Source: Alphaproteobacteria bacterium (GTDB lineage Bacteria; Pseudomonadota; Alphaproteobacteria; CALKHQ01). Taken from it: 64,000 nucleotides of DNA. The number at the start of each line of letters is the position of its first letter. Position 1 is the stretch's first letter. Location: positions 3,680,001-3,744,000 of the forward strand of contig CBDDFZ010000001.1 in assembly GCA_965227515.1 (NCBI GenBank), written 5' to 3'. The translations under genes were made by a program, and so were the position numbers. The notes beneath the pieces are model-generated. The model searched no databases and was not told the DNA's origin. It saw nothing but the letters and a program-made list of their open reading frames with translations. Shown here in pieces: positions 8,390-27,713 of this stretch.

Positions 8390-9523
8390 TCAGAGTGCCG
8401 CTCCGGCGCGGCGCGCGCCCTCGCCCAACGTGGCCAGCTTGGCATAGGCGATCTCGGGGTCGATGGCGCCGAAGCCGGCAAAGGTGCCGAAACCGCAATC
8501 GGTGCCGGCAATCACGCGCTCGGGCCCGACGATGTCGACGAACCGCGAGATACGCTCGGCGACCAGGCTCGGGTGCTCGACGAAATTGGTCGTGGTGTCG
8601 ATGACACCGGGCACCAGCACCGTGTCCGCCGGAATGTCGGCGGCCCGGTCCGCGATCACCCGCCATTCGTGCCCGTGGCGCGGGTTGGCGGTCTCGAACA
8701 GCAGATACTGCGCGCGCACGCTCATCAGTACGTCGAGCACGCGCTCCAGGCCGATATCGCAAACGTGGGGACCTTCGTAATTGCCCCAGCAGATATGCAC
8801 CCGCACCCGGTCGCGCGGCACGTTGCGCAACGCTTGGTTCAATGCCGCCACGTTGGTGCGCGCCTCTGCCACGAAGGCGTCGTCGGACAGGTCCTGGAAC
8901 ATCATGTGCCGGGAGAGCGCCAGGTCCGGGCAGTCGAGCTGCAGGTCGAGCCCGGCGGCGGCGATGGCTTCGTACTCGGCGGCCATGGCCTCGGCCAGCG
9001 CTTCCAGATACGCCTGCCGGCTGGGGTAGTGCTGGTTGGGCAGGAACAGCGAAATGACGCCGGGGGACGCGGCGTTCATGAAGCCCCGTTCCACGCCATT
9101 CGCCGCCATGGCGGCTTTCAGGCGCGCGATGTCGGCCTCCAGCTCCCCGGTGTCCTTCGAGGTGACCGGGCCGGTGCACTGTGGGCGCGCGTATTTCGGC
9201 GTGGCGCCGCTGGCGGCCAGGCGCTTCAGGAACGAGGGGAACTGCTGCAGGTCGGCCGGCGGGCTGCGCGGCGTGTCGCCGGAAAAGCCCGTGTAGCGGT
9301 CCTTCACATAGGTGGCGTAGGAGATTTTCGACATCTCGCCGTCGGACACGATGTCGATGCCGGCATCGCGCTGCCGTCCCACCGCTTCAGTGACCGCTTC
9401 GTCCAGTGCGGCATCGAAGGCGGCCTGGTCGACGGCCTCGCCATTCTCGCGCGCGAAAATCTGGTCGACGACCGCTTGGGGGCGCGGCAGCGAGCCGACA
9501 TGCGTGGTCAGGATTTTCGGCAT
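8390..9523 (-). CDS. Cobalamin-independent methionine synthase II family (stand-alone C-terminal Zn domain; epoxyalkane:CoM-transferase-like family)
   Basis: TTHVGSLPRP, SDGE, Zn ligands HICWGN, E in FETAN, GTDCGFG; 377 aa, no N-terminal MetE barrel. Confidence 0.85.
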   Translation of the reverse strand: MPKILTTHVGSLPRPQAVVDQIFARENGEAVDQAAFDAALDEAVTEAVGRQRDAGIDIVSDGEMSKISYATYVKDRYTGFSGDTPRSPPADLQQFPSFLKRLAASGATPKYARPQCTGPVTSKDTGELEADIARLKAAMAANGVERGFMNAASPGVISLFLPNQHYPSRQAYLEALAEAMAAEYEAIAAAGLDLQLDCPDLALSRHMMFQDLSDDAFVAEARTNVAALNQALRNVPRDRVRVHICWGNYEGPHVCDIGLERVLDVLMSVRAQYLLFETANPRHGHEWRVIADRAADIPADTVLVPGVIDTTTNFVEHPSLVAERISRFVDIVGPERVIAGTDCGFGTFAGFGAIDPEIAYAKLATLGEGARRAGAAL

Positions 9524-9563
9524 GGTTCCATCATTCTTTGCTCTGATCTCTCATACCCAACCT

Positions 9564-9742
9564 CGTCACCCTCGCGCTTGTCGCGAGGGTCCATTGGCGT
9601 GGCAGGCGCCATGTTGCGCATCGCATGCTCGAACTCTGACCCGCATCGAACATGCCAGCCTTCCCCTGTCGCTATTTCCTCATTGGAGGCGAAAGGGCCT
9701 CGGCGCTGAAATGGGTCCTCGCCACGAGGGCGAGGACGACAA
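9564..9742. repeat. REP-type inverted repeat pair (family B)
   Basis: GTCACCCTCGCGCTTGTCGCGAGGGTCCAT ... ATGGGTCCTCGCCACGAGGGCGAGGACGAC; same family as 26069-26240. Confidence 0.75.
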
Positions 9743-9765
9743 TCGTAGGAACTGTTTCATCGCGA

Positions 9766-10746
9766 TCACTCCCGTGTCGGGCCGGCGTCGTCGCCGGTCT
9801 TGCGCACGCGGAACAAGGCGGTCTCCCCGTTCATGGTCGGCGCAAGGCTTCGCTCGACACCGGCGGGCAGTGAGCACACGTCGCCCGGCGCCAGCGTGGC
9901 GGCGGCGCCGTTGGTGGCGACACGCCAGTGCCCGCGATGCACCATCAAGACCTCGTGCCGGTCGGGCGTGTAGGGCGCGCCCTCGCCGTCTTGCCCGCTT
10001 TGCAGGAACGCGACCTCGAAGCCGGTGCGGTCACGGATCATCGTGGAGTTGCCGGTGCCGATGACGGTCGCTGGCACGTCCGCCGACAATGCCTTCATGT
10101 CCCAGTAGCGGCGCACGAAACGGGGCACGACATCGGCGGCGGGCGTTTCCGGGAATTCGGCCAACTCCGCGTCGGTCAACAGCGGCATCGGGGCCACGCC
10201 GTCCGGCAGCCGTTCGCCCTTGGCGGTGTCATAGAGCCGTCCGGTCTCCGCCAGCACCAGGCCATGCTCCCGCGCCGCCTCGATGACGTGGGGCGCCCAC
10301 ACAACCCCGCCACCGGCGTCGTCGCCGCCCAGGATCGACATGATCATCCCGTAGTCGGTGCCGATGTTCTCGAACCCGCGGAAGATGCCCGTGGGAATAT
10401 CGAAGATGTCGCCTTCTTCCAGCACCACCTCGCCAGCGGCGCCGTGCAGGCCCCAGAAGAAGCGCCAGCGCCCATGCAGAACGAAGAACACCTCGGCGGT
10501 GCGGTGGGAGTGCATGGAATTCTTGCAGCCCGGCGGTTGGCCGGCGGCGCCGATGTTGAAGCCCGGCGTGTCGTGCAGGTGCACGTGCTGGTCGGTGCTC
10601 TCCGAAACGCCGGCGCCGATGATGGTGAAGTTCTCCTTGCGGTCGGAACCAGGCGTGTGCGCGTCGATGAAGGCGGTGCGGCACGGCTTCAGGTCGCCAT
10701 AGCGCACGATGCGGGATTCAAGCTCGGACGGCGTCATGGCGGTCAT
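9766..10746 (-). CDS. Cupin-domain protein (probable bicupin)
   Basis: Cupin motif 1 SMHSHRTAEVFFVLHGRW, motif 2 GDIFDIPTGIFRGFEN; second degenerate cupin HEVLMVHRGHW...LAPGDVCSLPAG. Confidence 0.8.
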   Translation of the reverse strand: MTAMTPSELESRIVRYGDLKPCRTAFIDAHTPGSDRKENFTIIGAGVSESTDQHVHLHDTPGFNIGAAGQPPGCKNSMHSHRTAEVFFVLHGRWRFFWGLHGAAGEVVLEEGDIFDIPTGIFRGFENIGTDYGMIMSILGGDDAGGGVVWAPHVIEAAREHGLVLAETGRLYDTAKGERLPDGVAPMPLLTDAELAEFPETPAADVVPRFVRRYWDMKALSADVPATVIGTGNSTMIRDRTGFEVAFLQSGQDGEGAPYTPDRHEVLMVHRGHWRVATNGAAATLAPGDVCSLPAGVERSLAPTMNGETALFRVRKTGDDAGPTRE

Positions 10747-11711
10747 GCACCCCGGTGCAACAGGATCTGCTTCCAGATCGCCGTTTCGTCATAGAGCACC
10801 CATTCGCGCCGCAAGCCCCATGGGCCGAATTCGGCATGGCTGAAGCCCATGAGATGGACCGGCGCGCCAGAGGGCGGACCGAACGGGCCCCAGCCATCGT
10901 GCCGCCCGTCCAGCGACCAGCGCAGGGCCGCGCGCGGCGGCATCTTCGGGTCGTCGCGTCCGATCCGGTGGTGGACAGCGAAGGTCGCGGCGGGAAAGGC
11001 GGATCGCAGGCCCAGCCAGAAGGCGTCCGCCGCCGCCCAGCCATGGCCCGATACGCCACCCGGGTGCTCAAGATGGCAGGCGCGGTCGTAGGTCGAGGGA
11101 ATGGCAGCGAAGTCGGCGTTCATGACGCGCCGCAGCAGGTCGGCATACTCCTCCCCGGCGGCATGATCGTTGCCCTTGCCGGTGTAAATGAGCGGCGCGT
11201 CCCGGTCCGGCGTGAAGGGCCGGCTTGCATGCTCCGGGCCGCCCTCGGCGGCGATGCGGTCGGCAGCGTACTGCTGGGGCGCGATGCCCAACTGCCGCAC
11301 GATCGCGCCCTGATCGCGCACCAGCCACTCGTCATAGACCTGGTTGTTGCGGCAGGCGCAGTCGGCGATGGCGCGGTAGCGCAGCGTCTTGCCCGTCGCC
11401 GGGCCGTATGTGCCGCTGGCCAGGTGCGTGGCGGTGCACATCAGCCGGTGGGAAGACAGAAAGTCATCCTCGGTGCCCGACCAGATGACGTCCTCGCCGA
11501 ACAACTGACGATCCGGCAGTTCAGCCAATGTTGCGGTGGTGGCCGCGATGACCGCCTGGTTGCCGGTGACCACGCCGGCCGGCGACCGCACCGCGATGTC
11601 GTCGGTGTAGTAGTGATTGAGGGTATCGACGCCCCTGTCTTCCCAGATCTCCTTGGTGATGCCGAGAATGTAGTCGGGCGGATCGGCGAACTTCGGGTCG
11701 AAGCCCTTCAC
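10743..11711 (-). CDS. Tandem SnoaL/NTF2-like ('ester cyclase') protein
   Basis: Two NTF2-like repeats (ATHLASGTYGPATGK...DEWLVRDQ; GRHDGWGPFGPPSG...REWVLYDE). Confidence 0.78.
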   Translation of the reverse strand: MKGFDPKFADPPDYILGITKEIWEDRGVDTLNHYYTDDIAVRSPAGVVTGNQAVIAATTATLAELPDRQLFGEDVIWSGTEDDFLSSHRLMCTATHLASGTYGPATGKTLRYRAIADCACRNNQVYDEWLVRDQGAIVRQLGIAPQQYAADRIAAEGGPEHASRPFTPDRDAPLIYTGKGNDHAAGEEYADLLRRVMNADFAAIPSTYDRACHLEHPGGVSGHGWAAADAFWLGLRSAFPAATFAVHHRIGRDDPKMPPRAALRWSLDGRHDGWGPFGPPSGAPVHLMGFSHAEFGPWGLRREWVLYDETAIWKQILLHRGA

Positions 11712-12724
11712 GTGGCAGCCTCCGTGGGGATGCGCGCAGACGTGCGCACGATGAGCGGCGCGTCGATGATCGTGCGCTGGGGCTCACTGTCCCCGCGCTC
11801 GATCCGCGCCAGCAAGGTATCGACCACCGCGTCCACCATGTCGTCGGCGGATTGCCGGATCGTGGTCAGGCCATAGGTCGGCCAGGCGGCCTGGGGCACG
11901 TCGTCGTAGCCGACGATGGACACGTCTTCCGGCACCCTGAGCCCGAACTCGCCGCGCAGCACGTCCATGACGGCAATCGCCATGTGGTCGTTGGCGACGA
12001 ACACGGCGTCGGGACGGTCCGCGCGTTCGAACATGCGGCGTGCGGCGGCCTCCGCATCCGGAAAGCTGTAGTTGCCGACGTCGCGCGCGAAGAGGCTCAG
12101 GCCGTGCGCCTCCAGGCCGGCGAGGAACCCGGCTTCGCGGTCGCGCTGGGTCGCAGCACCTTCCCAACCGGCGATGTAGGCAATGCGCTTGTGCCCACCC
12201 GCGGCAAGGAATTCGGCCAGCCTTCGGCCACCCGCCAGATTGTCGCCGGTGACGGCGGAAAACCTGGGATCGTCCTGGGCGCGGTTGAACAGCACGACCG
12301 GCACCCCGGCATCGTCGCACCGCGCGGCCAGGTCGGACGACATGGACGCCGACGCCAGCACGATGCCATCGGCCTGGTAGTTCAGGATCTTGTCGAGCAG
12401 GTCGTCGACATTGGCCGCCGTCTGCGGCGCCATGAACATCAAGATGTGGTAGCCGCGCTGTTGCAGCGCGCGTGACAGCAGTTCCAGCGCGGTCGGGTAG
12501 AACAGATTGTCCAGGTAGGCGACGACCAGACCGATGATGCGGCTGCGCCCGGTGATCAGCGAGCGGGCAAGCGCATTCGGCCTGTAGCCAAGCTCCTGCG
12601 CCGCCTTCAGCACCTTGGCGCGCGTCTTGATGCTGACGCTGCCGCCGGGGGTGAAGGTGCGGCTGACCGCCGATTGGCTGACCCCGGCATGTCGCGCCAC
12701 GTCGGTGGAGGACGGCCTGCTCAT
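11708..12724 (-). CDS. LacI-family transcriptional regulator
   Basis: HTH DVARHAGVSQSAVSR, LGYRPNALARSL, C-terminal VGYDD...LTTIRQ. Confidence 0.92.
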   Translation of the reverse strand: MSRPSSTDVARHAGVSQSAVSRTFTPGGSVSIKTRAKVLKAAQELGYRPNALARSLITGRSRIIGLVVAYLDNLFYPTALELLSRALQQRGYHILMFMAPQTAANVDDLLDKILNYQADGIVLASASMSSDLAARCDDAGVPVVLFNRAQDDPRFSAVTGDNLAGGRRLAEFLAAGGHKRIAYIAGWEGAATQRDREAGFLAGLEAHGLSLFARDVGNYSFPDAEAAARRMFERADRPDAVFVANDHMAIAVMDVLRGEFGLRVPEDVSIVGYDDVPQAAWPTYGLTTIRQSADDMVDAVVDTLLARIERGDSEPQRTIIDAPLIVRTSARIPTEAAT

Positions 12725-13272
12725 GCCCCCTCACCATCGCGCCGCGGCGTTGCAGCGTCTGCCTCGTCGTGCCCCTGGTCGAACTTCTCCCACCCCTCGC
12801 CGTTGAAGGGGTCGACGCCGAGCTGGCGCATCACGTGGGGGAAATCGACCATCACCCAATTGTCGACGATCTTGCCGTCCTTCACTTTCCAGAAGTCCAT
12901 GTAGCGGATCTCGACCCGCTTGCCGGTGGGCGCGATGCCCATGAACTCGCCCGAGTGCACCGCCTCCTGCCGGCCGAAGGCGGCCATCCACTCGCCCTCC
13001 GCGATCCGCGCCTCATCGATGCACACCTTGTCCGAGAACGCGGCCTGGAACGGGCGTTGCCAGTTGTCCTGGAACTCGCGCAAGCCCGCCTTGGTGCCAC
13101 AACCGGCATTGCCGTACCAATGGAAACCGTTGGCAAAAAACGCACCGATATCGTCGATGCGGTGGTCGTTCAGCCCGTCGACCATGGTCTCGACAACACG
13201 TCTGGTCTCCGCCGTCTTCGACAGATCGTTCTCGCGGGTCAGGGCCGCTTGCGGAGGGCGGGCGCCAGCCAT
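12721..13272 (-). CDS. Single-domain SnoaL-like ester cyclase
   Basis: WYGNAGCG...HSGEFMGIAPTGKRVEIRYMDFWKVKDGKIVDNWVMVD; start MAGARPP at 13272 after the permease stop. Confidence 0.85.
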   Translation of the reverse strand: MAGARPPQAALTRENDLSKTAETRRVVETMVDGLNDHRIDDIGAFFANGFHWYGNAGCGTKAGLREFQDNWQRPFQAAFSDKVCIDEARIAEGEWMAAFGRQEAVHSGEFMGIAPTGKRVEIRYMDFWKVKDGKIVDNWVMVDFPHVMRQLGVDPFNGEGWEKFDQGHDEADAATPRRDGEGA

Positions 13273-13286
13273 TAGCTCTATCCCCT

Positions 13287-14411
13287 CTAGCCCTTCACCG
13301 CACCGGCGGTCAGGCCGGAGACGATCTGGCGCTGGAACACCATCACCAGCACGAACAGGGGCGCTGTGATGGAGACGGCCGCGGCAACGGCCTCCACCTG
13401 ATCGGTCATCGTGGTTTCGCGGTTGAAGTATTGGGTGATGGAAGGAACCATGGTCATCGATTGCGCGTCCAGCAACAGTGCGGTGACCAGATAGTCGTTG
13501 TAGGCCAGCAGGAACGAGAACAGGCCGGTGGTGATCACCCCCGGCCACATCACCGGCATGATGACGCGGCGGAACGCCTCGAAATGGGTGCAGCCGTCGA
13601 CCCGCGCCGCCTCGTCGAGCTCGGCCGGAATATTCATGAAGAACGAGCGCAGCATCCAGATCGTGAAGGGCTGGTTGATCGACACCAGCACCACGATCAC
13701 CGCCCACGGCTGGCCATAGAACCCGAGATCGATGAACGGCGGCAGGTAGCCGGTGACCAGCACCGAATGCGGCAGCGCGCGGAAGATCAGCGCCAGGATC
13801 AGCAGCCAGAACGCAAGAGACGAGGGCGTGCGCGCCAGGGCGTAGCCGGCCAGCGTGCCCACGGTCAGCGAGACGGTGACCACGCCGGCGGTGACCAGCA
13901 TCGAGTTCAGGAAGTTGTTGTAGAAGCCGTTGTCGACCCAGACCGCCTCATAGTGCTGGGTCGTCATCCCGATCAGCGGATCGACCAGAAAGCCGCCGCC
14001 GGTGGCGCTGCGCAGTGTCTCGGAGATCAGCGGCAGCAGCCAGACCAGTACGAGGCCCACGGCGATGAGGAAGAGCACGCCGGCGACGATCCAGCCGACC
14101 CAGACCTGGCCCGAGACGGCCAGGGTGCGCGCGGCCATCGCGCCATGGCGGCGGGCGAGCCGGGCCGCGAACCAGATCGCGGCAATACCGAGCACGATGT
14201 CGACCGGCGAGAGCCCCGCTCCCGCCGTGCGGGTTGCCGGCCCGAAGATGACGTCCAGTGGGTTGGACGCGAACGCGTCCACCGGCAGCTTGAACGACAT
14301 CACCATGATCCAGAACAACGGGAAGGCCGCGATCAGCATCCAGAATGCGAGGAAGCCGGCCGAGGTCAGTTTCAGCCCCCAGGGCTGGCGCATTGCGCGT
14401 GTTTCCGCCAT
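13287..14411 (-). CDS. Carbohydrate ABC transporter permease with extra N-terminal TM insert
   Basis: EAA motif ELDEAARVDG, C-terminal GLTAGAVKG; 374 aa. Confidence 0.9.
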   Translation of the reverse strand: MAETRAMRQPWGLKLTSAGFLAFWMLIAAFPLFWIMVMSFKLPVDAFASNPLDVIFGPATRTAGAGLSPVDIVLGIAAIWFAARLARRHGAMAARTLAVSGQVWVGWIVAGVLFLIAVGLVLVWLLPLISETLRSATGGGFLVDPLIGMTTQHYEAVWVDNGFYNNFLNSMLVTAGVVTVSLTVGTLAGYALARTPSSLAFWLLILALIFRALPHSVLVTGYLPPFIDLGFYGQPWAVIVVLVSINQPFTIWMLRSFFMNIPAELDEAARVDGCTHFEAFRRVIMPVMWPGVITTGLFSFLLAYNDYLVTALLLDAQSMTMVPSITQYFNRETTMTDQVEAVAAAVSITAPLFVLVMVFQRQIVSGLTAGAVKG

Positions 14412-14420: not shown

Positions 14421-15449
14421 CTATCGCTTCCTGTGGTGGTCGCGCCAGGTGCGCATCAACAGCGGGATCAACAGGATCACGATCCCGACCATGGTCAGCA
14501 TCGAGGTGGCCGACGCGCGCGAGACCGAGCGGTTGCCGCTGTCGTCAGGCGTCAGGAAGTTGAAAGTCAGCCATTGCAGCGATATGCGATGCGCCTGGGA
14601 GCGGAAGCCGATCACCTCCTCGAACACCCGGTAGGCGTCCATCAGGTGGATCAGCGCGATGAACACGATCAGCGGCATCAGGTGCGGGATGACGACGAAG
14701 CGCAACCGCTCCCAGCGCGACGCGCCATCGACGACCGCGCTCTCCAGCGTGTCCATGTTCACCGTTTGCAGGCCGGCGTAGAACACGACGAACGCGAATG
14801 GCGCCACGTGCCAGACGCGGTAGAAAAGCATCAGCACCTCGATCGCCCAGCCATTGGCGAACACCGAGACGTCGTGGCCCAGCATCGCCTCCAGGGCATT
14901 TGTCATCAGCCCGTCGCCGACGAACAGCCAGCGGATCGACAGCGCGCCGATGACCGGCGTGATGATGAACGGCAGCAGCGAGACGAAGATGATCGGGCCG
15001 CGCAGGCGCTTGATGGCGTTGTTGACCGCGACCGCGATCGCCAGGCCGACGCCAATGACCAGCGGCAGGGTGATCAGGGTGAAGGTCAGGGTGAACCTGA
15101 GCGCCTTGTAGAAGTCGATGTTGAGGAGGTCGGCGAGCCCGCCGCCCGCGGCCGAGAAGGCGTCGGCCACCGCCTCCGGCTGCAGCAGGCTGACATAGAC
15201 GTCGAACCCGACAAATGTGGTTTCGGTGACCGGCTGGCCATTCTCATCTAGCACTTGTTGGCGCCGCACCTCCTCGGTGCACACCGGGTTGGGGAAGCCC
15301 GGCGTGCAACTCTCGACCGTCACCTCCTCGAATACCGACTGGGTGAGCAAGAACGACTGCACCAGCACGCTCGCCAGCGGTGCGGCGATAAAGATCACCA
15401 TCAGCGCGACCGACGGCGCCACGAACGCGATGAACGTGCGGCGTTTCAC
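14421..15449 (-). CDS. Carbohydrate ABC transporter permease
   Basis: LESAVVDGAS EAA motif; periplasmic loop CTPGFPNPVC. Confidence 0.9.
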   Translation of the reverse strand: MKRRTFIAFVAPSVALMVIFIAAPLASVLVQSFLLTQSVFEEVTVESCTPGFPNPVCTEEVRRQQVLDENGQPVTETTFVGFDVYVSLLQPEAVADAFSAAGGGLADLLNIDFYKALRFTLTFTLITLPLVIGVGLAIAVAVNNAIKRLRGPIIFVSLLPFIITPVIGALSIRWLFVGDGLMTNALEAMLGHDVSVFANGWAIEVLMLFYRVWHVAPFAFVVFYAGLQTVNMDTLESAVVDGASRWERLRFVVIPHLMPLIVFIALIHLMDAYRVFEEVIGFRSQAHRISLQWLTFNFLTPDDSGNRSVSRASATSMLTMVGIVILLIPLLMRTWRDHHRKR

Positions 15450-15517: not shown

Positions 15518-16735
15518 CTATTGGATCAGCCCGCTCTCCTTGGCCAGGCTCAGATAGGCGGCCTCCACATCGGCCAGAGTCTGCTCGGCGCTCTCGTCAC
15601 CGAGCAGGAAGTCGGCGATGTTGTCGCCCAGCGCGGTGTGCATCAGGCCCATCTCCGTCGACGCCGGATAGGACGGTGCGCCAGCGATGGCGGAGTCGAT
15701 GGCGCCCTGCGCCACCGGGCTCGGCTCGAAGCCATCGATCAGCCACACGGCGACATCGTTGTTGGCCTGCACCATCTCGGTGTCCAGGCCCTCCATTGCG
15801 ACGCGGAACGCGGCCTCGGCCTCCTCGTCGGGGATGTTCTTGGCGATGACGATACCGTCCCACCACAGGGTGGTCGCCGGTGCACCGCCTTCGACGGCGG
15901 CCGGAGCGGCGGCCATCGTCACCAGGCCGACCACGCTGGACTCCGCCTCGTCGTCCATGGCGCCGGCGCGGCTCGCCCACAGATTGGCCATGGCGATGTC
16001 GCCCTGCTGGAACTGCTGCTGCACATAGGTTGAGTCGGAGACCAGGAACTCGGGGTCCATATAGGCGGTCAGCGCCTTCAGCATCTCCAGCGCCTGCACG
16101 CCCTGCTCGTTGTTGACCGACGGCGTCAGGTCGTCGTTGAAGAACGCGCCGCCGAAGCCGAGGTACATATTGATGAATTCCTCGCCCAGGTTCCAACCGG
16201 TCATGAACGTGCCGCCGATCGGGTAGTCCACCACCCCGGCCTCCTGGATCACCTCGGCCGCGGCCAGCATCTCGTCATAGGTTGTAGGCGGCGCCAGGCC
16301 CAGGTCGTCGAAAATATCGGATCGGTACATCAGGTGCTGGGCGTTCACCATCATCGCGATCGCCATGATGTCGCCGTCGATGGAGATGAGCTGGTTCGGG
16401 GTCAACTGGCCGCCATACGCCTCCACCAGGTCGTTCAGCGGGCGGATGGTGCCGTCGTTCAGCAGCGGCACCAGGGTGCCGTTGGCGACCCCGCCGACAT
16501 GATAGAGCGACGGATCGGCGGCGAAGCCTGTCGGTTGCTTGGTGCGAAACTCCTGGTCGAGCTCGGCATTGACGTTGCCGCACTCGGCCATCGCGCCGGT
16601 GACCGCTTGCCAGGCTTCGAACGCCGCCGACAGCATGCTGATCTCGACATCGTTCTCGAACGCGCATTCGGCGAACGCGCCGCCAGCCGGCGCAATCGCG
16701 CAGGCCGACGCCAAGGCGATGGTGCGAAGCTTCAT
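15518..16735 (-). CDS. Sugar ABC transporter substrate-binding protein
   Basis: Signal peptide MKLRTIALASACAIAPAGGAFA; SBP family 1 features (LMYRSDIF, AMANLWASRA); GGGAGA RBS. Confidence 0.88.
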   Translation of the reverse strand: MKLRTIALASACAIAPAGGAFAECAFENDVEISMLSAAFEAWQAVTGAMAECGNVNAELDQEFRTKQPTGFAADPSLYHVGGVANGTLVPLLNDGTIRPLNDLVEAYGGQLTPNQLISIDGDIMAIAMMVNAQHLMYRSDIFDDLGLAPPTTYDEMLAAAEVIQEAGVVDYPIGGTFMTGWNLGEEFINMYLGFGGAFFNDDLTPSVNNEQGVQALEMLKALTAYMDPEFLVSDSTYVQQQFQQGDIAMANLWASRAGAMDDEAESSVVGLVTMAAAPAAVEGGAPATTLWWDGIVIAKNIPDEEAEAAFRVAMEGLDTEMVQANNDVAVWLIDGFEPSPVAQGAIDSAIAGAPSYPASTEMGLMHTALGDNIADFLLGDESAEQTLADVEAAYLSLAKESGLIQ

Positions 16736-17864: not shown

Positions 17865-17880
17865 TTGCATACGAATGCAA
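17865..17880. promoter_or_regulatory. LacI-type operator palindrome TTGCATACGAATGCAA
   Basis: 16-bp near-perfect palindrome with central CG in the divergent intergenic region; exact reverse complement at 27698-27713. Confidence 0.8.
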
Positions 17881-19949: not shown

Positions 19950-20717
19950 TTACCCTGCCGTCCAACCGCCGTCGATCAGCAGCGATGTGCCGGTCACCAT
20001 CGCGGACGCATCTGACGCCAGGTAGACGATGGCGCCCATGATGTCCTCGATGTTGCCGATGCGGCCCAATTTGATCTTGCTCTCGATCCAGCGCATCCGC
20101 TCGGGGTTGGAGAATGTCTGTTCGGCCAGGGGCGTGCGGATGAAGGTCGGGCCGATGGTGTTGACCCGGATCCCATGCGGTCCCCACTCGATCGCCATCG
20201 CCTTGGTGAACCCCTCGATGGCGAATTTGGAGGCGCAATAGACCGCGCGGTCCAGCCCGCCGACATGACCCATCTGGGACGAAACGGTGACGATGGAGCC
20301 CGGCTTGCCGGCGTCGATCAACCCCTTGGCAACCGCCTGGGCGAGGAAGTAGGCGCCGCGCAGGTTGACCGACATCACCGCGTCATAGTCGTCCGGCGTG
20401 GTCTCCACCGCCGGAGTATGGCGGGCAATGCCGGCCGAATTGACCAGCACGTCGAAGGGACCGTGGCGCGCAATCGCCTCCGCCGCTGCCTCGACATTGG
20501 CGATGTCGAGCGGAAGGGCCTCGGCAGACCAGCCCTCGCCGGTTATGGCAGCGGTCGCTTCCTCCAGGCGTTCGAGCCCGCGCGCGGCAAGCACGACGTG
20601 GGCACCGGCCTCGGCGAGAGCAACGGCGCAGCCGAAGCCGATGCCGGACGATCCGCCGGAAACCAGCGCGCGCCGGCCGTCCAGCCGCATGGATGGCGTG
20701 CGCGGAATGCCCGTCAT
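19950..20717 (-). CDS. Short-chain dehydrogenase/reductase
   Basis: SGGSSGIG, VNSAG, SSQMG, YCASK, IDGGWTAG; start overlaps the upstream stop (ATGA). Confidence 0.92.
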   Translation of the reverse strand: MTGIPRTPSMRLDGRRALVSGGSSGIGFGCAVALAEAGAHVVLAARGLERLEEATAAITGEGWSAEALPLDIANVEAAAEAIARHGPFDVLVNSAGIARHTPAVETTPDDYDAVMSVNLRGAYFLAQAVAKGLIDAGKPGSIVTVSSQMGHVGGLDRAVYCASKFAIEGFTKAMAIEWGPHGIRVNTIGPTFIRTPLAEQTFSNPERMRWIESKIKLGRIGNIEDIMGAIVYLASDASAMVTGTSLLIDGGWTAG

Positions 20718-21739
20718 CGCTTCATGCCCCATCGCGCCTTGTTGAATTCGCGCAGGCGCGCGAACACGTCGACGCCAAGCTGCGCATAGACGTCGAGCAG
20801 GTCGACCATCACCCAATTCTCGCGGATCAGCCCATCCTCCAGCCGCCAGAAGTCCAAACTGCGCATGGTGATGCGCTTGCCGGCCGGCGCAATGCCCATC
20901 CAGCCGTCATGGGTCAGGGTCTGGATCATGTCGGGCCAGCCGGTGACGCCGGCATACGCGCCCTCGGCAAAGAAATGATAGACGATCTCGTCGACATACT
21001 GACCGCGGTCCGGCATGGCATTGAGGAACGGGATCTGGTGCCAGTTGCGGAAGCCCTCGATACCGCGCCCGGTGCCGATGCCCGACGGGCCATACCACGT
21101 CATCCGCGGGTGCCAATAGCGTTCCATCTCCATCACTTCCGGTCCGCCCTGCGACGGGTGCCGCTTCATCGCCGTCAGCATATCGATGATGTGCTGGCGG
21201 GTGGCGATGGCCATGTCCGGATCGTGCGGGCCCAGCCCATCCTGGGACGCCGGCCCGGGCACGTGCCATTCGCGGCCCAGGCTGGGCGCCATCGGCCAGG
21301 CGCCGGCCTGCATCATCACCTCGGGAATGTCCCACAGCGCCTGCATCTCGACCACGCGGCCGTCCTCGACCCGAAAGAACTCATGAAAGCGCATGTGCGC
21401 GAGGTGGCCAGTGGGCGGAATGTCGAGCCAGGGCTCGGCGAACGTGCCGAGGTAGAAGCCGCCGCAGCCGACCCATTGGTCGCCATGCGGGGTCTCGCCG
21501 GCAATAACGATATGGTCGCGCCGCTCCAGGTCTGGCCACGCTGAATGGAGTGGTCCCAGGGCACGGCCATACAGGCCGTCCGCACCGTCCATATCCTCGA
21601 ACGGATAGGCCAGATGCACGGCGGCATCCGGCGCGAACGCATCCGCCAGCGCCGCCCGGACGCTGTCGGGCGCGAAGTCATAGAGCGCGCGGCGCAACGG
21701 CGCCAACCGCGCCGTGTTGGCGGCGTGGATATCGGTCAC
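20714..21739 (-). CDS. Tandem SnoaL/NTF2-like ester cyclase
   Basis: Paralog of 17935-18915: WYGPSGIG...HQIPFL...GWPDM...GWMGIAPAGKRITMRSLDFWRLEDGLIRENWVMVD. Confidence 0.82.
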   Translation of the reverse strand: MTDIHAANTARLAPLRRALYDFAPDSVRAALADAFAPDAAVHLAYPFEDMDGADGLYGRALGPLHSAWPDLERRDHIVIAGETPHGDQWVGCGGFYLGTFAEPWLDIPPTGHLAHMRFHEFFRVEDGRVVEMQALWDIPEVMMQAGAWPMAPSLGREWHVPGPASQDGLGPHDPDMAIATRQHIIDMLTAMKRHPSQGGPEVMEMERYWHPRMTWYGPSGIGTGRGIEGFRNWHQIPFLNAMPDRGQYVDEIVYHFFAEGAYAGVTGWPDMIQTLTHDGWMGIAPAGKRITMRSLDFWRLEDGLIRENWVMVDLLDVYAQLGVDVFARLREFNKARWGMKR

Positions 21740-21742: not shown

Positions 21743-23068
21743 CTACTCGGCGGCATCCCGGTAGGGTGCCGGCTCGCCATAGGGCACGTTGATGCCGCCA
21801 TAGCGCCGCACCCTGACGTTGGCCTGCTCGGCATGGCCCACGAACCCCTCCAGCATGCACAGCCGCGAGCAGTATTCGCCCACCTGGGTGGCGGCCTCGT
21901 CGGTCAGCACCTTCTGGTAGGAGTGGGTCTTCAGGAACTTGCCGACCCACAACCCGCCGGTATAGCGCCCCGCCTTCTTGGTCGGCAGGGTGTGGTTGGT
22001 ACCGATCACCTTGTCGCCGTTGGAGACGTTGGTGCGCGGCCCCAGGAACAGCGCGCCATAGGCGGTCATGTTGTCCAGGAACCAGTCGTCGCGGTCGGTC
22101 ATCACCTGCACGTGCTCGGAGGCGATGTCGTCGGCGACCGCCAGCATCTCGTCATAGTCGTCGCAGAGGATGACCTCGCCATAGTCGCGCCAGCTCGCCG
22201 ACGCGGTCTCCGCAGTGGGCAGGATTTGCAGCAGCCGGTCGACCTCGGCCAACGTTTCCTCGGCCAGCTTGCGCGAATTGGTGACCAGGATCGCCGGCGA
22301 GTTGTAGCCGTGCTCGGCCTGGCCCAGCAGGTCGGTGGCGCAGAGCTCGGCATCCACCGTGTCGTCGGCGACGATCAAGGTCTCGGTCGGCCCGGCCAGC
22401 AGGTCGATGCCGACGCGCCCGAAGAGCTGACGCTTGGCCTCGGCGACATAGGCATTGCCGGGACCGACCAGCATGTGCACCGGCTCGATGGTCTCGGTGC
22501 CGAGGGCCAGCGCGCCGACCGCCTGGATGCCGCCGAGCACGTAGATCTCGTGCGCGCCGCCGAGTTGCATCGCCGCGATCACCGCCGGGTTGGGCTCGCC
22601 CTTGAACGGCGGTGTGGCGGCCGCGATGCGCGGCACGCCGGCCACCGAGGCGGTCAGAACCGACATATGCGCCGACGCCACCATCGGGAACTTGCCGCCG
22701 GGCACATAGCATCCCACCGACTGCACCGGAATGTTGCGGTGGCCCAGGATGACGCCGGGCAGCGTCTCGACCTCGACGTCGGTCATCGAGGCGCGCTGGG
22801 CCTCGGCGAACCGCCTGATCTGCGCCTGGGCAAAGCGGATGTCGGCCATGTCGCGGTCGGAGACACGGCCCATCAGCGCCTCGATCTCGGAGGACGACAG
22901 CCGGAAACGTTCGGGCGTGTAGCCGTCGAACTTGGCGGACAACTCCCGCACCGCCGCGTCGCCACGCGCGGCGATACCGTCCAGCGTCGCCTCGACGACC
23001 GCGCGCACCTTGGCGTCGTCGTCCGCCCGGTCTTCGGCCGGCTTGCCGCGTTTGAGGTAGGTGGTCAT
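21743..23068 (-). CDS. Histidinol dehydrogenase homolog (HisD/HpsN-like), probably catabolic
   Basis: [42 protein letters not shown]; GDK where canonical HisD has GDY; no other his genes nearby. Confidence 0.88.
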
Positions 23069-23218: not shown

Positions 23219-24274
23219 TCACCCCCTGATCCGCTGCTCGGTGGCGGCATCGAAAAGGTAGACATGGGCCCCTGCCAGCGACAGTGACACCGTGTCGCCG
23301 ATGGCGCGGCGCATGCGGCGTTCGCCCTTGGCAACGATGCGCTGACTGCCGATCTCGATCGTGACCAGCACGCTCTCGCCGGTCGGCTCGAAGGCGTAGA
23401 CCGACGCGTCGAAGTCGCCGGCGCCGGCCTCGCCGACGCTGATGTCCTCCGGCCTGACTCCGAGCACGACCCCTTCGCGGTCGCCCGGCACGTTGCAAGG
23501 CACGCTCAACGGGCCGGCGGCAAACCGACCGCCCTCAAGCCGTCCCTCGATCAGGTTCATCGCCGGCGAGCCGATGAAACCGGCGACGAACAGATTGGCC
23601 GGATCGTCGTAGATCTCATCCGGCGGCCCAAGCTGCTGGATGACGCCGTGGTTCATCACCGCCACCCGGTCGGCCAGGGTCATCGCCTCGATCTGGTCGT
23701 GGGTGACGTAGACGGTGGTGATCGCCAGCTCGTGCTGCAGGTGCTTGATCTCGGCGCGCATGGAAACCCTGAGCTTGGCATCCAGGTTCGACAGCGGCTC
23801 GTCCATCAGGAACACCTGCGGCGTGCGCACGATGGCGCGGGCCAGGGCCACGCGCTGGCGCTGGCCGCCGGACAGCTCGCGCGGCTTGCGGTGCAGCAGG
23901 TCGGCGAGCTGTACCTTCTCGGCCGCTTGCTGGACGCGCGGCCCGATCTCCGGCTTCGGCGTGCCGCGCACATCGAGCGGGTACCCGATGTTGCGCGCCA
24001 CCGTCATGTGCGGATAGAGGCCGTAGTTCTGGAACACCATGGCGATGTCACGGTCTTTCGGCAGCTCGTCGTTGACCATGCGGTCGCCGATCCAGACCTC
24101 GCCCTCGCTGGGGTCCTCCAGACCGGCGATCATCCGCATGGTGGTGGTCTTGCCGCAGCCCGACGGGCCCAGCAGCACCAGGAACTCCTGGTCGGCGATG
24201 TCGAGCGACTGGTTGTCGACGGCGACGAAGTCGCCCCAGCGCTTGCTCACATTTTCCAGCCTGACGCCAGCCAT
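23219..24274 (-). CDS. Sugar ABC transporter ATP-binding protein
   Basis: GPSGCGKTT, LSGGQRQR, FLMDEP; start MAGVRL at 24274 overlapping the permease stop. Confidence 0.93.
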   Translation of the reverse strand: MAGVRLENVSKRWGDFVAVDNQSLDIADQEFLVLLGPSGCGKTTTMRMIAGLEDPSEGEVWIGDRMVNDELPKDRDIAMVFQNYGLYPHMTVARNIGYPLDVRGTPKPEIGPRVQQAAEKVQLADLLHRKPRELSGGQRQRVALARAIVRTPQVFLMDEPLSNLDAKLRVSMRAEIKHLQHELAITTVYVTHDQIEAMTLADRVAVMNHGVIQQLGPPDEIYDDPANLFVAGFIGSPAMNLIEGRLEGGRFAAGPLSVPCNVPGDREGVVLGVRPEDISVGEAGAGDFDASVYAFEPTGESVLVTIEIGSQRIVAKGERRMRRAIGDTVSLSLAGAHVYLFDAATEQRIRG

Positions 24275-25101
24275 CAGCGTACCGCCCCCATGGTCATGCC
24301 CTGCACGAAATGACGTTGGATGATCAGCGCCAGCACGAACATCGGCACCATGATGATGATGCCGGCGGCCGCCAGCAGGTTCCACTGGTCGCCTTCCTCC
24401 GCCTTGAACAGGGCGAGGCCCACCGGCAGGGTCACCGCGTCCTTGGTGGTCAGGATCAGCGCGAACAGGAAGTCGTTCCAGGCGATGATGAAGCAGAAGA
24501 TGGCACCGGTGATGATGCCGGGGGCGGCCATCGGCATTACGATGCGCACGATCACCTGCATGCGTGTCGAGCCGTCGACGAGGGCCGCTTCCTCGGTGTC
24601 CTTCGGTATCCCGTCGATGAACCCTTTGATCATCCATATCGCGAAGGGCATCACGATCGACAGGTTCACCAGCACCAGGCCGTACCAGGTGTCGGTGATC
24701 TTCAGGTCGCGAAACATCAGGAAGAACGGCAGCACGATGACCACGGCGGGCACGAACTGGGTGGCCAGGATCATCACGAACATCACCCGCTCGCCACGCA
24801 TGCGAAAGCGCGAGAACGAATAGGCGGCACAGGTCGCGATCGGAATCGCGATGGCCACGGTGACCGTGGCGACGAGCGTGGAGTTCCACAGCTTGTCGCC
24901 CAGATCGTAGGGCGCATCGAACACGGTGGCGTAGTTGTCGAGCGTCGGCTCGAAGAAGAGCTTGAGCTGGTAGACGTCGACGTGGGTCTTGAACGAGGCG
25001 AGCGCGATCCAGGCGATCGGCACCATCATGAACAAGACGACCAGCACGATCAGCGCGACCTTGCCCGCCTCGACCAGCCGGCGTTTCTGGCGGTTGGTCA
25101 C
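24274..25101 (-). CDS. Carbohydrate ABC transporter permease
   Basis: TEEAALVDG EAA motif, WNDFLFA, GMTMGAVR; GTG start overlapping the upstream stop. Confidence 0.92.
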   Translation of the reverse strand: MTNRQKRRLVEAGKVALIVLVVLFMMVPIAWIALASFKTHVDVYQLKLFFEPTLDNYATVFDAPYDLGDKLWNSTLVATVTVAIAIPIATCAAYSFSRFRMRGERVMFVMILATQFVPAVVIVLPFFLMFRDLKITDTWYGLVLVNLSIVMPFAIWMIKGFIDGIPKDTEEAALVDGSTRMQVIVRIVMPMAAPGIITGAIFCFIIAWNDFLFALILTTKDAVTLPVGLALFKAEEGDQWNLLAAAGIIIMVPMFVLALIIQRHFVQGMTMGAVR

Positions 25102-26033
25102 CGCGCGCCCCGGAACACGAAACGGGTGTACAGGAATGTGAGACCGATCATCGGGATCACCATGATCCAGGCGACGGCGGCCGCGTAACCCATGTCGTAG
25201 TACTTGAAGCCCTGGAAATACGCGTAGTGGGCCAGGGTCTGGGTCGCGGTGCCGGGGCCGCCATTGGTCAGCATGTAGACCTGATCGAACGTCTTCAGCG
25301 AGAAGATGGTTTTCAGGATGACGACGACCGCCAGCACCGGGGCGAGTTGCGGCAGGGTGACGTCCCGAAACACCCGCCAGGTGGAGGCACCGTCGACCTG
25401 GGCCGCCTCGACTGTTTCGCGCGGCACCGCGGCGAGCCCGCCGATCAGCACCAGTGTCAGGAACGGGATCCAGCCCCACACATCGGCCAGCACCACAACG
25501 ACGAACGCCAATGTCGGATCCGACAGCCAGGAAATCTCGGCCAGCGGCGGGATCAGCACGCCGAAGAAGGCGTCGAACAGGCCGAACTCAGGATTGAACA
25601 TGAACCGGAACGACACGCCCACCAGCGCCGGGCTCATGGCGAACGGCAGGATCAACAGCGTGCGCACGGTGAAGCGCAGCCGGCCGCCCGGCGCCAGCAG
25701 CATCGCGATGCCCAGCGCAAGCACAGTGGTGATGGCAACGGTCAGCACGGTGTAGACCGCGGTGACGAGCACGGAGTTCCAGAACGCCGGCTCGCAGAAC
25801 AACGCCCATTCGTAGTTGTCGAACCAGACGAACGGGCCCGGCTCGTTGGACCGCCCCAGGTCCCACCGGCGGAACGACAGCACCAGGCTATCGATCAGTG
25901 GATAGATGGCGGTGGCGAACACCACCACCACCGCCGGCAGCACCAGCAGATACTTCAGGTGGCGGTCGCGCAGCCCCCCGCGCCGCCAGGGGACATCGCG
26001 GGTGGAATTGGCGGCCTGGGCGGAGGTGGTCAT
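25098..26033 (-). CDS. Carbohydrate ABC transporter permease
   Basis: VEAAQVDGAS, LTNGGPG, MGYAAA. Confidence 0.92.
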   Translation of the reverse strand: MTTSAQAANSTRDVPWRRGGLRDRHLKYLLVLPAVVVVFATAIYPLIDSLVLSFRRWDLGRSNEPGPFVWFDNYEWALFCEPAFWNSVLVTAVYTVLTVAITTVLALGIAMLLAPGGRLRFTVRTLLILPFAMSPALVGVSFRFMFNPEFGLFDAFFGVLIPPLAEISWLSDPTLAFVVVVLADVWGWIPFLTLVLIGGLAAVPRETVEAAQVDGASTWRVFRDVTLPQLAPVLAVVVILKTIFSLKTFDQVYMLTNGGPGTATQTLAHYAYFQGFKYYDMGYAAAVAWIMVIPMIGLTFLYTRFVFRGAR

Positions 26034-26068
26034 GGCCTAACCAACGCAGAGCCTGTCAATACATGCTC

Positions 26069-26240
26069 GTCGCCCTCGCCCTTGTGGCGAGGGCCCATTC
26101 CTGTCGAGGCTCCGCCATCTCGTGCGAAGCCTCGACTTCGGGGCGCATGCGGTCTCATCGCTGGACCAACCACAATGCCCTGTTCGGCAAGAAGAGCAAC
26201 CGCCACATAGATGGGCCCTCGCCACAAGGGCGAGGGCGAC
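26069..26240. repeat. REP-type inverted repeat pair (family B)
   Basis: Perfect 30-bp inverted repeats GTCGCCCTCGCCCTTGTGGCGAGGGCCCAT (26069-26098) and 26211-26240. Confidence 0.85.
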
Positions 26241-26262
26241 AATGCTTCTTCTTTCTTCGACC

Positions 26263-27603
26263 CTACTCGTCGTAGTACCCGGCACGGCCCAGCACGCGCT
26301 CGACCTGCTCGGCCGCCTCCAGCATCAGCTCGCGGGTGTCGCCACCGGCCGCTGCCTCGGCAATCGCGGCCGACAGGATGTCGCCGACCTCCGTCCATTC
26401 CGGGATTTGCGGCATGATGTCGGAGTTCTGCAGCGACGCCCAGGCGGCCTCCTGGATATTGCTGTTGGCCGCATTGACCTCCGCGTCGGTTAGGTTCGCG
26501 ATGTGGGTGACCACGTTGTTGATAATGGTCTCACCGGCAACCTCGCGCTCGGTCGCGTTCGCCTTCTCCAGGTCGGGGTTCGACAGCCACTTCAGGAACT
26601 CCCAAGCCGCATCCTGATTCTCGGAGTACTGCGAGATCGAGAACGGCATCGAAATGGCGTATGTGGCGGTGGTGCCCTGGTACGACGGCATGCCGACAAA
26701 GCCGACCTGATCGGCGGTCAGCACAGATTGTTCCGGATTGGTCATTGGCGAATAGGCCCACCACCAGACCGGGATCATGGCGGAGTTGCCCTGCTGGAAC
26801 GACTGGCGCGCGTCCTGCTCCACGAAAGACAGCGACGCCGGGTTGGTGACGCCTTCGGTGTGAAGCTTGATGTACGCTTCCGTCGCGGCCAATGCCTCCT
26901 CCGAGGTCCAGGCCGGCTTCATGTCCTCATCGAACACATCGCCGCCGACAGCCCACAGGAAGTTCAGCCAGATGAACAGGTTCTGCCGGTTGCCGTCGTT
27001 GTTGTAGTAGAGCGCGAGCGGCTCGATATCGAGGCCGGCCTCGCGGATCAGCCGCGCCGCCTCGATCACGTTGTCCCACGTGGTTGGCGGCTCGGCGCCC
27101 ACCTGCTCGAAGATGTCGGTGCGGTAGAACATGAGCTGGGCATGGGCGCGCAACGGGAAGCCCAGGGTCTCGCCCTCGAACTGCGCAGAGCGCGCGAACG
27201 CCGGCGGATAGCGGTCCATCGAGATGCCGTCGCGGGCCATCCAGTCGTCGATGCGGACCAGCCAGTGCGCGTTCGGCGGCCCCCAGCTATCGAGATAGTT
27301 GACCAGATCGAACGAGCCGTCGGCCGCCACGCCCACCGCCGACACTTTTTCCTGCAACGCGGTGAAGGGAATGAAGGTCCATTCGGTCTCGATGCCGGTC
27401 AGTTCGGTGAATTCGCCGTCTCGCAGCATCAGGCCGTCGAATTGCGGCGTGACCACCGACAGGATCTGGAGGGTCGTGCCCTCGAAGGGCTTGCCGGGCA
27501 GCAGGCCATACGGCAGTTCGTCCTGCGCCATCGCAGGGAAAGCCAAGGCACCTGCCAACAGGAATGCACCGAGCCCGGCGATCGGGCGCGCGTTCGAGTT
27601 CAT
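26263..27603 (-). CDS. Sugar ABC transporter substrate-binding protein
   Basis: Signal peptide MNSNARPIAGLGAFLLAGALAFPAMA-Q; GGAGGGAG RBS; LMFYRTDIF, AAWEFLKWL. Confidence 0.9.
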   Translation of the reverse strand: MNSNARPIAGLGAFLLAGALAFPAMAQDELPYGLLPGKPFEGTTLQILSVVTPQFDGLMLRDGEFTELTGIETEWTFIPFTALQEKVSAVGVAADGSFDLVNYLDSWGPPNAHWLVRIDDWMARDGISMDRYPPAFARSAQFEGETLGFPLRAHAQLMFYRTDIFEQVGAEPPTTWDNVIEAARLIREAGLDIEPLALYYNNDGNRQNLFIWLNFLWAVGGDVFDEDMKPAWTSEEALAATEAYIKLHTEGVTNPASLSFVEQDARQSFQQGNSAMIPVWWWAYSPMTNPEQSVLTADQVGFVGMPSYQGTTATYAISMPFSISQYSENQDAAWEFLKWLSNPDLEKANATEREVAGETIINNVVTHIANLTDAEVNAANSNIQEAAWASLQNSDIMPQIPEWTEVGDILSAAIAEAAAGGDTRELMLEAAEQVERVLGRAGYYDE

Positions 27604-27697
27604 CGTTTGCTCCCTCCAACTTGAGCTTTTTCCTCGGCCCGGATCGTGCGTCCGCCGGCACCGATGGCTCAATTCTGACAGCCTAGTATGCGTGATT

Positions 27698-27713
27698 TTG
27701 CATTCGTATGCAA
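27698..27713. promoter_or_regulatory. LacI-type operator palindrome TTGCATTCGTATGCAA
   Basis: Exact reverse complement of 17865-17880; ~95 bp upstream of the SBP start. Confidence 0.8.

Follow-up and report, generated by a model that had tools for sequence, protein, structure and literature searches.

The window analysed here is the whole stretch of 64,000 nucleotides (nt) from contig CBDDFZ010000001.1 (positions 3,680,001–3,744,000, forward strand) of the 5.52 Mb alphaproteobacterial genome assembly GCA_965227515.1. It carries two operons and one divergent gene coding for two ATP-binding cassette (ABC) importers, four SnoaL/NTF2-like proteins, a LacI-family repressor, a HisD paralog, a bicupin, a MetE-core-like zinc enzyme of the cobalamin-independent methionine synthase (CIMS) type and a short-chain dehydrogenase/reductase (SDR), and this gene set is a real, conserved and undescribed regulon under a single repressor. 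The arrangement had been outlined in an original prediction made from the DNA letters, and every gene of it was retrieved at its place, and with its family, from the list of open reading frames and from family scans. Operon A (minus strand, 17851–8390) runs from an ATPase through a solute-binding protein (SBP), two permeases, a single-domain SnoaL, the LacI repressor, a tandem SnoaL and the bicupin to the MetE-core-like gene, with junctions of −4 to 68 nt up to the bicupin and a 242-nt gap before the last gene. A tandem SnoaL gene (17935–18915, plus strand) lies opposite to it, and operon B (minus strand, 27603–19950) codes for an SBP, two permeases, an ATPase, the HisD-family protein, a tandem SnoaL and the SDR. 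Most gene junctions in the two operons are overlapping or shorter than 70 nt. The features are as follows (CUT1, carbohydrate uptake transporter type 1).

8390–9523, minus: MetE-core-like (CIMS) Zn enzyme (PF01717)
9766–10746, minus: bicupin (PF07883)
10743–11711, minus: tandem SnoaL/NTF2, group 1, SnA (family scan, group motifs)
11708–12724, minus: LacI-family repressor, presumed operator binder (family scan)
12721–13272, minus: single-domain SnoaL/NTF2, group 2, SnS (family scan)
13287–14411, minus: ABC permease A2 (PF00528)
14421–15449, minus: ABC permease A1 (PF00528)
15518–16735, minus: CUT1 solute-binding protein A, SBP-A (PF01547)
16775–17851, minus: ABC ATPase A (family scan)
17865–17880, no strand: operator 1, LacI-type palindrome with central CG, between operon A and the divergent SnoaL
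17935–18915, plus: tandem SnoaL/NTF2, group 2, SnD (family scan)
19950–20717, minus: SDR oxidoreductase (family scan)
20714–21739, minus: tandem SnoaL/NTF2, group 2, SnB (family scan)
21743–23068, minus: HisD/HpsN-family dehydrogenase, HisD1 clade (family scan, alignments)
23219–24274, minus: ABC ATPase B (family scan)
24274–25101, minus: ABC permease B2 (family scan)
25098–26033, minus: ABC permease B1 (family scan)
26263–27603, minus: CUT1 solute-binding protein B, SBP-B, ATG at 27603 (family scan)
27698–27713, no strand: operator 2, upstream of operon B

A 16-nt imperfect palindrome, TTGCATACGAATGCAA, was found at 17865, 13 nt before the gene for ATPase A and 54 nt before the divergent SnoaL gene, and again in reverse orientation at 27698, 94 nt before SBP-B. 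When the genome was searched allowing up to two mismatches, only these two sites were retrieved, in agreement with the predicted identical operator ahead of each operon. A matrix built from 24 sites (loci L001–L083 plus the window; consensus TTTGCATACGTATGCAAA) scored them 28.9 and 31.1, the next best site in the genome reaching 16.8 and no other site attaining 17; a candidate third operator at 19873, with three mismatches to the palindrome, scored below 14 and was discarded. The same matrix detected 69 sites, spread over 38 of 67 further loci (one or more of these sharing a genome with a training locus, and one site lying ahead of a distant LacI gene), each at −60 to 400 nt from the start of a gene matched by the query set, the loci including roseobacters, Deinococcus, Priestia, Pantoea and Novosphingobium. 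An operator-like site was also present upstream of SBP-B in 61 of the 82 loci having an SBP-B ortholog and at least 300 nt of upstream sequence, as compared with 34 of 16,400 shuffles, the pattern having been loosened after examples had been viewed. The operator is kept at four of seven stand-alone cupins and in L002, where importer B forms an operon of its own without HisD or SDR. The features of a LacI regulon are thus all found, namely a LacI gene and a conserved palindromic operator with central CG upstream of the regulated operons, and the LacI protein of the cluster probably binds this operator. Since the two sites are unique in the genome and the operator recurs with the cluster genes in relatives, the assignment of both operons to one regulon was borne out.

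The tandem SnoaL query retrieved at least 554 related stretches, in roseobacters and in streamlined marine alphaproteobacteria labelled Pelagibacteraceae or MarineAlpha5, and the cupin was found in 134 of the 301 roseobacter-family genomes sampled; leaf and soil bacteria have the cluster in intact form, and Ruegeria sp. THAF33 and Marinovum algicola DG 898 are cultured bacteria with the complete set. Sixty cupin loci, picked from the stronger matches on long contigs, were examined, and the 53 of them with HisD1 or SnoaL are referred to as core loci. Here the genes recur together, as the predicted co-occurrence demanded: LacI in 49, HisD1 in 48, the MetE-core gene in 47, SnoaL in 46, the SDR in 45, an alpha/beta hydrolase in 36, an RraA-type aldolase in 26 and an HpaI-type aldolase in 3, counts that overstate independence because the loci are related and partly near-duplicates. 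[quoted passage not shown]

The closest solved structures to the HisD paralog are those of HpsN (E 2e-112; PDB 8v35/8wwe), and its orthologs are labelled 'sulfopropanediol 3-dehydrogenase' in JGI and in some NCBI records. According to the available part of PMC11382572, HpsN has a G-R-Y-A/S-H motif with the sulfonate-binding His126. At this motif the window protein reads G-K-F-P-M, as most of its relatives do, and the histidine is present in none of 138 copies. The positions of the HpsN Zn ligands, of Glu318-His319 and of Asp352-Lys353 are all kept (Q250, H253, E318, H319, D352, K353 and H412 being invariant in 13/13, with 8v35 as the alignment reference), with the Asp-Lys pair found in 136 of the 138 copies. 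Because the sulfonate histidine is absent in all 138, the paralog is not HpsN despite the database labels, and the loss of this residue together with the retention of Asp-Lys would suit a carboxylate in place of the sulfonate. As to an hpsO/hpsP-type setting, HpsO ranks 12th among the 13 matches of the window SDR, which is at least as near to many other SDRs, and no Zn-dependent alcohol dehydrogenase or lyase family recurs among the neighbours. The identification with histidinol dehydrogenase HisD was rejected as well, its G-S-A-P-L-type motif being different; the protein passes TIGR00069, which does not separate paralogs, and a separate HisD-family gene, 32% identical, lies on contig C2. In the HisD family, the group oxidised is a primary alcohol that has a Zn-binding OH or NH2 next to it (PMC11382572, in the part available), and the window enzyme is proposed to oxidise CH2OH to COOH next to a tertiary alcohol. 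A second, separate clade (HisD2) has an amidase with it at 14 of 15 loci. The HisD1 slot of three streamlined marine genomes (L069, L070 and L076, around 6500–7770) is occupied by another HisD-family clade, with the motif G-R-Y-N-N and 46% identity to the window protein, which is an in-place replacement. On plasmid pRL8 of Rhizobium johnstonii 3841 (L086), the HisD1 gene stands beside a divergent LacI-like gene and transhydrogenase genes.

The SnoaL proteins split into two groups with differing motifs. The window, Vibrio pelagius and Mesorhizobium INR15 each have one group-1 and three group-2 genes; five plasmid loci were tested, from Deinococcus, Priestia, Pantoea, Novosphingobium and Roseibium, and these hold only group 1 (9/9 proteins), mostly with an amidase or C-N hydrolase and the second HisD clade. 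Group-2 proteins occur in 24 plasmids, 21 of which are, on our own reading of source or genus, marine or saline. In the accessible part of the review PMC3083659, marine MAAs are described as imines with two exceptions, fungal and lichen mycosporines as oxo forms, and mycosporine-glutaminol and mycosporine-taurine, the latter an oxo-MAA, are named. The group-1-only loci with amidase are as expected for fungal oxo-mycosporines such as mycosporine-glutaminol, for which an amino-alcohol dehydrogenase plus an amidase would fit the conversion of glutaminol to glutamine and then glutamate, and the mostly marine or saline occurrence of group 2 is as expected for imino-MAAs. In three genomes an xsc/soe-type taurine operon (the soe name being our assumption, from gene position) ends with a distinct group-1 paralog, which falls in a clade of its own (support 0.997) that also holds second copies from other loci. 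In Vibrio europaeus, a lone group-2 SnoaL and a major facilitator superfamily (MFS) importer stand opposite a symporter and an L-serine ammonia-lyase, with a half-conserved operator between the two sides. The SnoaL paralogs lying beside taurine, serine and amidase/amino-alcohol genes match known mycosporine side chains.

According to the available part of a review that cites Dunlap and Shick, shinorine and porphyra-334 lose their hydroxy-amino acids through hydrolysis by Vibrio harveyi, and 4-deoxygadusol is formed by bacteria; the group-1 ortholog is present in a record named V. harveyi 1DA3, which may or may not be the strain of the reported work. We propose SnA as an oxo-mycosporine (enaminone) hydrolase and SnB as an imino-mycosporine hydrolase. 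In its structural model (predicted local distance difference test, pLDDT, 94.8) the SnoaL protein is a plain tandem NTF2. The best copy reached 43.6 bits against the cut-off of 200 for the SnoaL polyketide cyclase family NF033407, and no polyketide genes were seen among the neighbours of related loci. On the V. pelagius plasmid (L082:1–6707), a sarcosine oxidase gene and purU lie directly downstream of two SnoaL genes; they might act on an N-methyl side chain, or have nothing to do with the SnoaLs.

In the bicupin, whose fold was confirmed, H79, H81 and E85 are invariant and the motif-2 His is replaced by R123, Arg being found in 19 of 19 rows of the alignment from which this residue was judged. 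The best folds matched by its AlphaFold2 model (pLDDT 87.5) are quercetinases (Z 20.7 and 20.1), followed by salicylate/gentisate dioxygenases (Z 19.2 and 19.0); an ESM Atlas search returned only unnamed cupin clusters. The protein is like quercetin 2,3-dioxygenase in its bicupin fold and in the HxHxxxE metal motif of the N-domain, but is only 12–18% identical to it and has Arg for the motif-2 His. Dke1 and acireductone dioxygenase are further cupin dioxygenases cleaving enol-diones, and the window cupin is proposed to be a ring-cleaving dioxygenase of a 2-methoxy-1,3-dione ring.

In the MetE-core enzyme, S11/E63/D197 and H243/C245/E277/C343 are invariant in 14/14 sequences and correspond, as judged by motifs and alignments, to the homocysteine and Zn ligand positions given in the available part of PMC7857596; with all of them kept, homocysteine is the likely acceptor. 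The enzyme resembles the core folate-independent methionine synthases MesA-D, as far as that source describes them, in its single catalytic barrel and in all these residues, but differs in lying in a catabolic operon, in staying under all NCBIfam cut-offs (at best 94 bits, where 406 are required) and in its methyl donor, which we infer to be the catabolic substrate. It weakly matches the MesD structure 3rpd (E 3e-4), and no corrinoid protein or MesX was recognised among its neighbours. The alpha/beta hydrolase has GxSxG in 92 of 93 copies and no close ortholog in the source genome (best 30%). Streamlined marine loci have almost only the methyltransferase; land loci have only the esterase. A replacement of one by the other within Rhodobacteraceae was not supported, the loci without both (2/53) being close to the ~1.9 expected. 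The slot ahead of the MetE-core gene holds a class I S-adenosylmethionine methyltransferase in 8/53 loci and, in L012, L014, L095, L138 and L152, a directly preceding gene that we take, from its N-terminal motif, to be dipeptidase-like; a glucose-methanol-choline oxidase and a lactonase-like amidohydrolase are seen in some other loci. On a plasmid of the haloarchaeon Halobellus limi (L272:12800–19193) five SnoaL genes and a MetE-core gene stand in a row. Two vicinal oxygen chelate proteins, an HpaI-type aldolase and a GcvT-like protein are encoded nearby, and the locus may be a cupin-free variant.

Two modules can come apart in distant loci: a lower one, made up of HisD1, SDR, cupin, hydrolase and aldolase, and an upper one of importer and SnoaLs. 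The SDR is absent from the minimal lower operons L118, L150 and L282, the first of which is a nine-gene operon with SBP-B, permeases, ATPase, HisD, LacI, cupin, hydrolase and RraA, its only enzymes being HisD, cupin, hydrolase and RraA. SBP-B occurs in 23/301 genomes, all of them among the 134 cupin carriers, and it was not detected in 40 relatives of the source genome at E 1e-60. Of 60 loci with importer B, 34 have a lower-module gene as the first co-oriented enzyme gene behind it, 2 a SnoaL and 24 no labelled gene; behind importer A this place is taken by a SnoaL in 37 of 48 loci, and in 17 of the 20 found via the cupin and hence not selected for SnoaL. A tripartite ATP-independent periplasmic (TRAP) system, which as an importer replacement suits an anionic substrate, occupies the slot before HisD in L091 and lies inside the cluster in L116. 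The HisD, SnoaL and SDR genes of window operon B sit inside operon A in most relatives. The candidate description of V. pelagius as having the upper module only was dropped, its lower operon lying 130 kb away on the same plasmid. This distribution suggests a pathway with two points of entry, each marked by one of the importers, importer A being proposed for amine-substituted mycosporines and importer B for the amine-free core (gadusol/4-deoxygadusol). A link to the orphan binding protein SAR11_0271, for which the available text of PMC11485210 gives no high-affinity ligand and weak phenylethylamine binding, could not be made, no HTCC1062 name appearing among the cluster members inspected.

RraA and HpaI-type aldolases have unrelated folds and both cleave 4-hydroxy-2-oxo acids to pyruvate. 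That these two folds trade places at the end of the module points to a 4-hydroxy-2-oxo acid as the last intermediate. The RraA protein belongs to PF03737 and matches 4-carboxy-4-hydroxy-2-oxoadipate aldolase 3noj at only E 2.8e-4; in the source genome its ortholog (44%) is unlinked, on contig C2 and without operator match, and HpaI-like (44%) and OtnK-like (47%) genes sit away from the cluster. The original prediction had counted no glycosidase, kinase or aldolase in the set; the lack of an aldolase holds for the window only and fails for relatives, where an aldolase is present in 28/53 loci and some have a 3-oxo-tetronate kinase.

In seven loci otnK-otnC adjoin the lower module, co-oriented in five and without the threonate dehydrogenase gene ltnD in five; they directly follow RraA or the cupin, co-oriented, in L117, L225 and L270, and ltnD in L223. 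About 0.1 otnK adjacencies would be expected by chance in 150 loci, a rough figure assuming one random otnK per genome with kinship not corrected. V. pelagius, the seventh of these loci, has a compact operon otnK-otnC-otnI-cupin-aldolase-hydrolase opposite a TRAP system, without HisD and without ltnD, which was found after the tetronate prediction had been drawn. Representative Otn proteins pass the NCBIfam cut-offs, so that full members of tetronate catabolism (OtnK, OtnC and OtnI; NF043035, NF043034 and NF043033) are joined to the lower module in relatives; unlike that pathway, the window has no Otn genes, and those of the relatives mostly come without the entry dehydrogenase LtnD. Based on the generally known structures of gadusol and 4-deoxygadusol, gadusol opened beside the methoxy carbon, demethylated and aldol-cleaved would give pyruvate and 2,4-dihydroxy-3-oxobutanoate, the substrate of OtnK, and 4-deoxygadusol, by the same route with HisD, would give 4-carboxy-4-hydroxy-2-oxoadipate and then pyruvate and oxaloacetate.

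These evidences lead us to favour, with a probability of roughly two in three, a regulon for the breakdown of MAAs, of fungal mycosporines and of the amine-free cores 4-deoxygadusol and gadusol. The reading rests on several independent gene-neighbourhood fits, and the comparative data show one operator, two modules and a pyruvate-aldolase ending; they also support the earlier idea that a cyclic compound containing N is degraded by oxidation, its ring being opened and a group transferred. In the proposed route, importer A would take up substituted MAAs, group-2 SnoaLs would hydrolyse one imine/enamine substituent (imino-MAA to oxo-MAA), and the group-1 SnoaL would hydrolyse off the last, whereby glycine, serine, threonine, taurine or an amino alcohol is set free and 4-deoxygadusol remains; importer B, or the TRAP system in relatives, would take up the free core directly. 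The cupin, with O2, would split the ring next to the methoxy carbon to give a methyl ester, whose methyl would be removed as methanol by the alpha/beta esterase or, in the window, passed to homocysteine by the MetE-core-like enzyme to yield methionine. The HisD paralog would then oxidise the hydroxymethyl group to give 4-carboxy-4-hydroxy-2-oxoadipate, to be cleaved by an RraA- or HpaI-type aldolase (in the source genome, presumably the unlinked RraA) into pyruvate and oxaloacetate; with HisD skipped, gadusol would end in pyruvate and 3-oxo-tetronate, the latter handled by OtnK and OtnC. The order of the cupin, methyl-removal and HisD steps is provisional.

Several observations weigh against this proposal, besides the kinship of the loci counted. 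The fold matches of the SnoaL protein are generic (10–21% identity) and single out no function, and we know of no NTF2-fold enaminone hydrolase; in Vibrio THAF64 the serine deaminase is absent at the matching place beside the same SnoaL. The fold matches of the cupin do not point to one function either, its neighbours within 2 Z units including non-oxygenases (oxalate decarboxylase, seed proteins), and with Arg for the third metal His the three-His-plus-Glu site is lacking. The Halobellus plasmid has its five SnoaLs and MetE-core enzyme without a cupin, so that the methyl may be taken before ring opening, and the methyltransferase and esterase complement each other in the family no better than chance. 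The SDR has no place in the scheme, and HisD1 of R. johnstonii pRL8 (82%) has no SnoaL, cupin or other cluster gene within 15 kb. As regards the two entry points, no labelled gene comes after 24/60 B importers, SnoaLs occur elsewhere in the genomes whose B operons lack them, and operon B of the window itself contains a SnoaL.

Among other explanations, the least improbable, though still unlikely, has other C7 aminocyclitols as substrates, or adducts of amines and sugar-derived reductones (of the ascorbate-like, Amadori or Schiff-base kinds) that would likewise yield a tetronate and pyruvate. Tetronate genes serve threonate and erythronate too, the binding proteins are of the CUT1 sugar type, an L-fuconolactonase-like amidohydrolase is found in some loci and ltnD in two of the seven otn-linked ones; its absence from the other five tells the other way, such compounds would need a methyl donor and an esterase for which a methoxy ring accounts directly, and it is MAAs in particular that agree with the taurine link and with the division of the SnoaL groups between land and sea. 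That the two operons are loosely related and handle separate substrates under one repressor appears distinctly improbable: SBP-A and SBP-B are ~30% identical over a short stretch and importer B is missing from most loci (present in 1/80), but SBP-B is nested in cupin-positive genomes (23/23), the operator travels along, and the HisD-SnoaL-SDR genes of operon B belong to operon A in most relatives.

Equally improbable in our view is an organosulfonate pathway, in which the HisD paralog would be a variant HpsN acting on a compound like 2,3-dihydroxypropane-1-sulfonate (DHPS) or cysteinolate. The hpsRNOP system for DHPS is under LacI-type control and, like the cluster, has a HisD-family Zn/NAD+ alcohol-to-acid dehydrogenase beside an SDR, with the Zn, Glu-His and Asp-Lys positions (including the Lys353 equivalent) kept; HpsN provides the nearest solved relatives, the ortholog labels agree, and xsc, soe-type and tauD genes adjoin some loci. 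Unlike hpsRNOP, the cluster has no His126 motif (0/138 copies) and no HpsP or sulfo-lyase, but ABC import, four SnoaL genes, a cupin, a MetE-core enzyme and a pyruvate aldolase; no suyAB-, cuyA- or slcD-like family recurs among the neighbours, no xsc ortholog was found in the source genome (best 26%), and the leaf and soil bacteria keep the cluster whole. The earlier suggestion of a possibly sulfur-containing compound was not supported for the core, sulfur entering only via the taurine-linked SnoaL paralog in some relatives. No more credible is a substrate of the syringate, gallate or flavonol kind, a methoxylated aromatic or O-heterocycle that would lose its methyl group and be cleaved to 4-carboxy-4-hydroxy-2-oxoadipate. 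The RraA-family aldolase is common to protocatechuate/gallate 4,5-cleavage (4-hydroxy-4-methyl-2-oxoglutarate/4-carboxy-4-hydroxy-2-oxoadipate aldolase, 3noj), with the same proposed end intermediate and products, and the cupin is nearest to quercetinases and gentisate dioxygenases. The aldolase similarity is, however, at family level, an HpaI-type aldolase substitutes in several lineages, no aromatic dioxygenase or hydratase is present (no LigAB/LigJ/LigU-like or Rieske family recurring among the neighbours), the importers are sugar-type and accompanied by LacI, and an aromatic ring yields neither a hydroxymethyl branch for HisD nor 3-oxo-tetronate.

The genes surrounding the cluster were also inspected. 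Within its span, 49 nt after the SDR, a gene for a secreted or lipoprotein-like product (18929–19900, minus strand) has an HExxH motif, no Pfam match and M61/MA-clan peptidases as ESM Atlas neighbours (0.96), and it is in no related locus. Just downstream of operon A and co-oriented (4859–8292), a MelR-like AraC regulator, a glycoside hydrolase family 4 (GH4) alpha-galactosidase (above cut-off, 1.2 kb past the end of the cluster) and an aldo-keto reductase form a separate galactoside module. Divergent from operon B (27967–40493) are a SorC-type regulator, an ABC system, a GlpD-like dehydrogenase, a kinase and isomerase-like genes, which we liken to an erythritol/polyol cluster. As the GH4 block, the peptidase-like gene and the SorC block were matched in 0 of 80 related loci, they were rejected as members of the system. 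A repetitive extragenic palindromic-like element occurs at 9710–9740, 26069–26109 and 26200–26240, with 208 blast matches of at least 24 nt genome-wide; promoter and terminator scans gave results at chance level.

What is new here is the enzyme set and its chemistry, the regulatory and transport frame (LacI plus ABC) being ordinary. We consider it a little better than an even bet that the cluster is the general bacterial degradation pathway for mycosporines, MAAs and gadusols, with two new NTF2-fold hydrolase families (imino- and oxo-specific, with taurine- or glutaminol-tuned paralogs), a 2-His-1-Glu-Arg ring-cleaving cupin, a methionine synthase fed by a catabolic substrate and two importers (one for intact MAAs, one for the amine-free core that other microbes leave behind or animal eggs shed), carried by more than 40% of roseobacter-family species and by streamlined ocean alphaproteobacteria, its dehydrogenase inflating ocean hpsN counts. 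Whatever the substrate, a HisD paralog mislabelled as sulfopropanediol dehydrogenase is a risk for metagenomic estimates of DHPS flux. MAAs are abundant ultraviolet (UV) screens of algae, corals, cyanobacteria and fungi, and the proposed substrates have strong UV bands. The enzymes for MAA bio-transformation in symbiotic organisms were not known at the time of the review PMC3083659, according to its accessible part. If true, the reading would imply a sizeable unmapped flux of carbon, nitrogen and methyl groups through the roseobacter-family and the Pelagibacteraceae- or MarineAlpha5-labelled genomes carrying the cluster, and would matter for what becomes of MAAs when they are employed as sunscreens.

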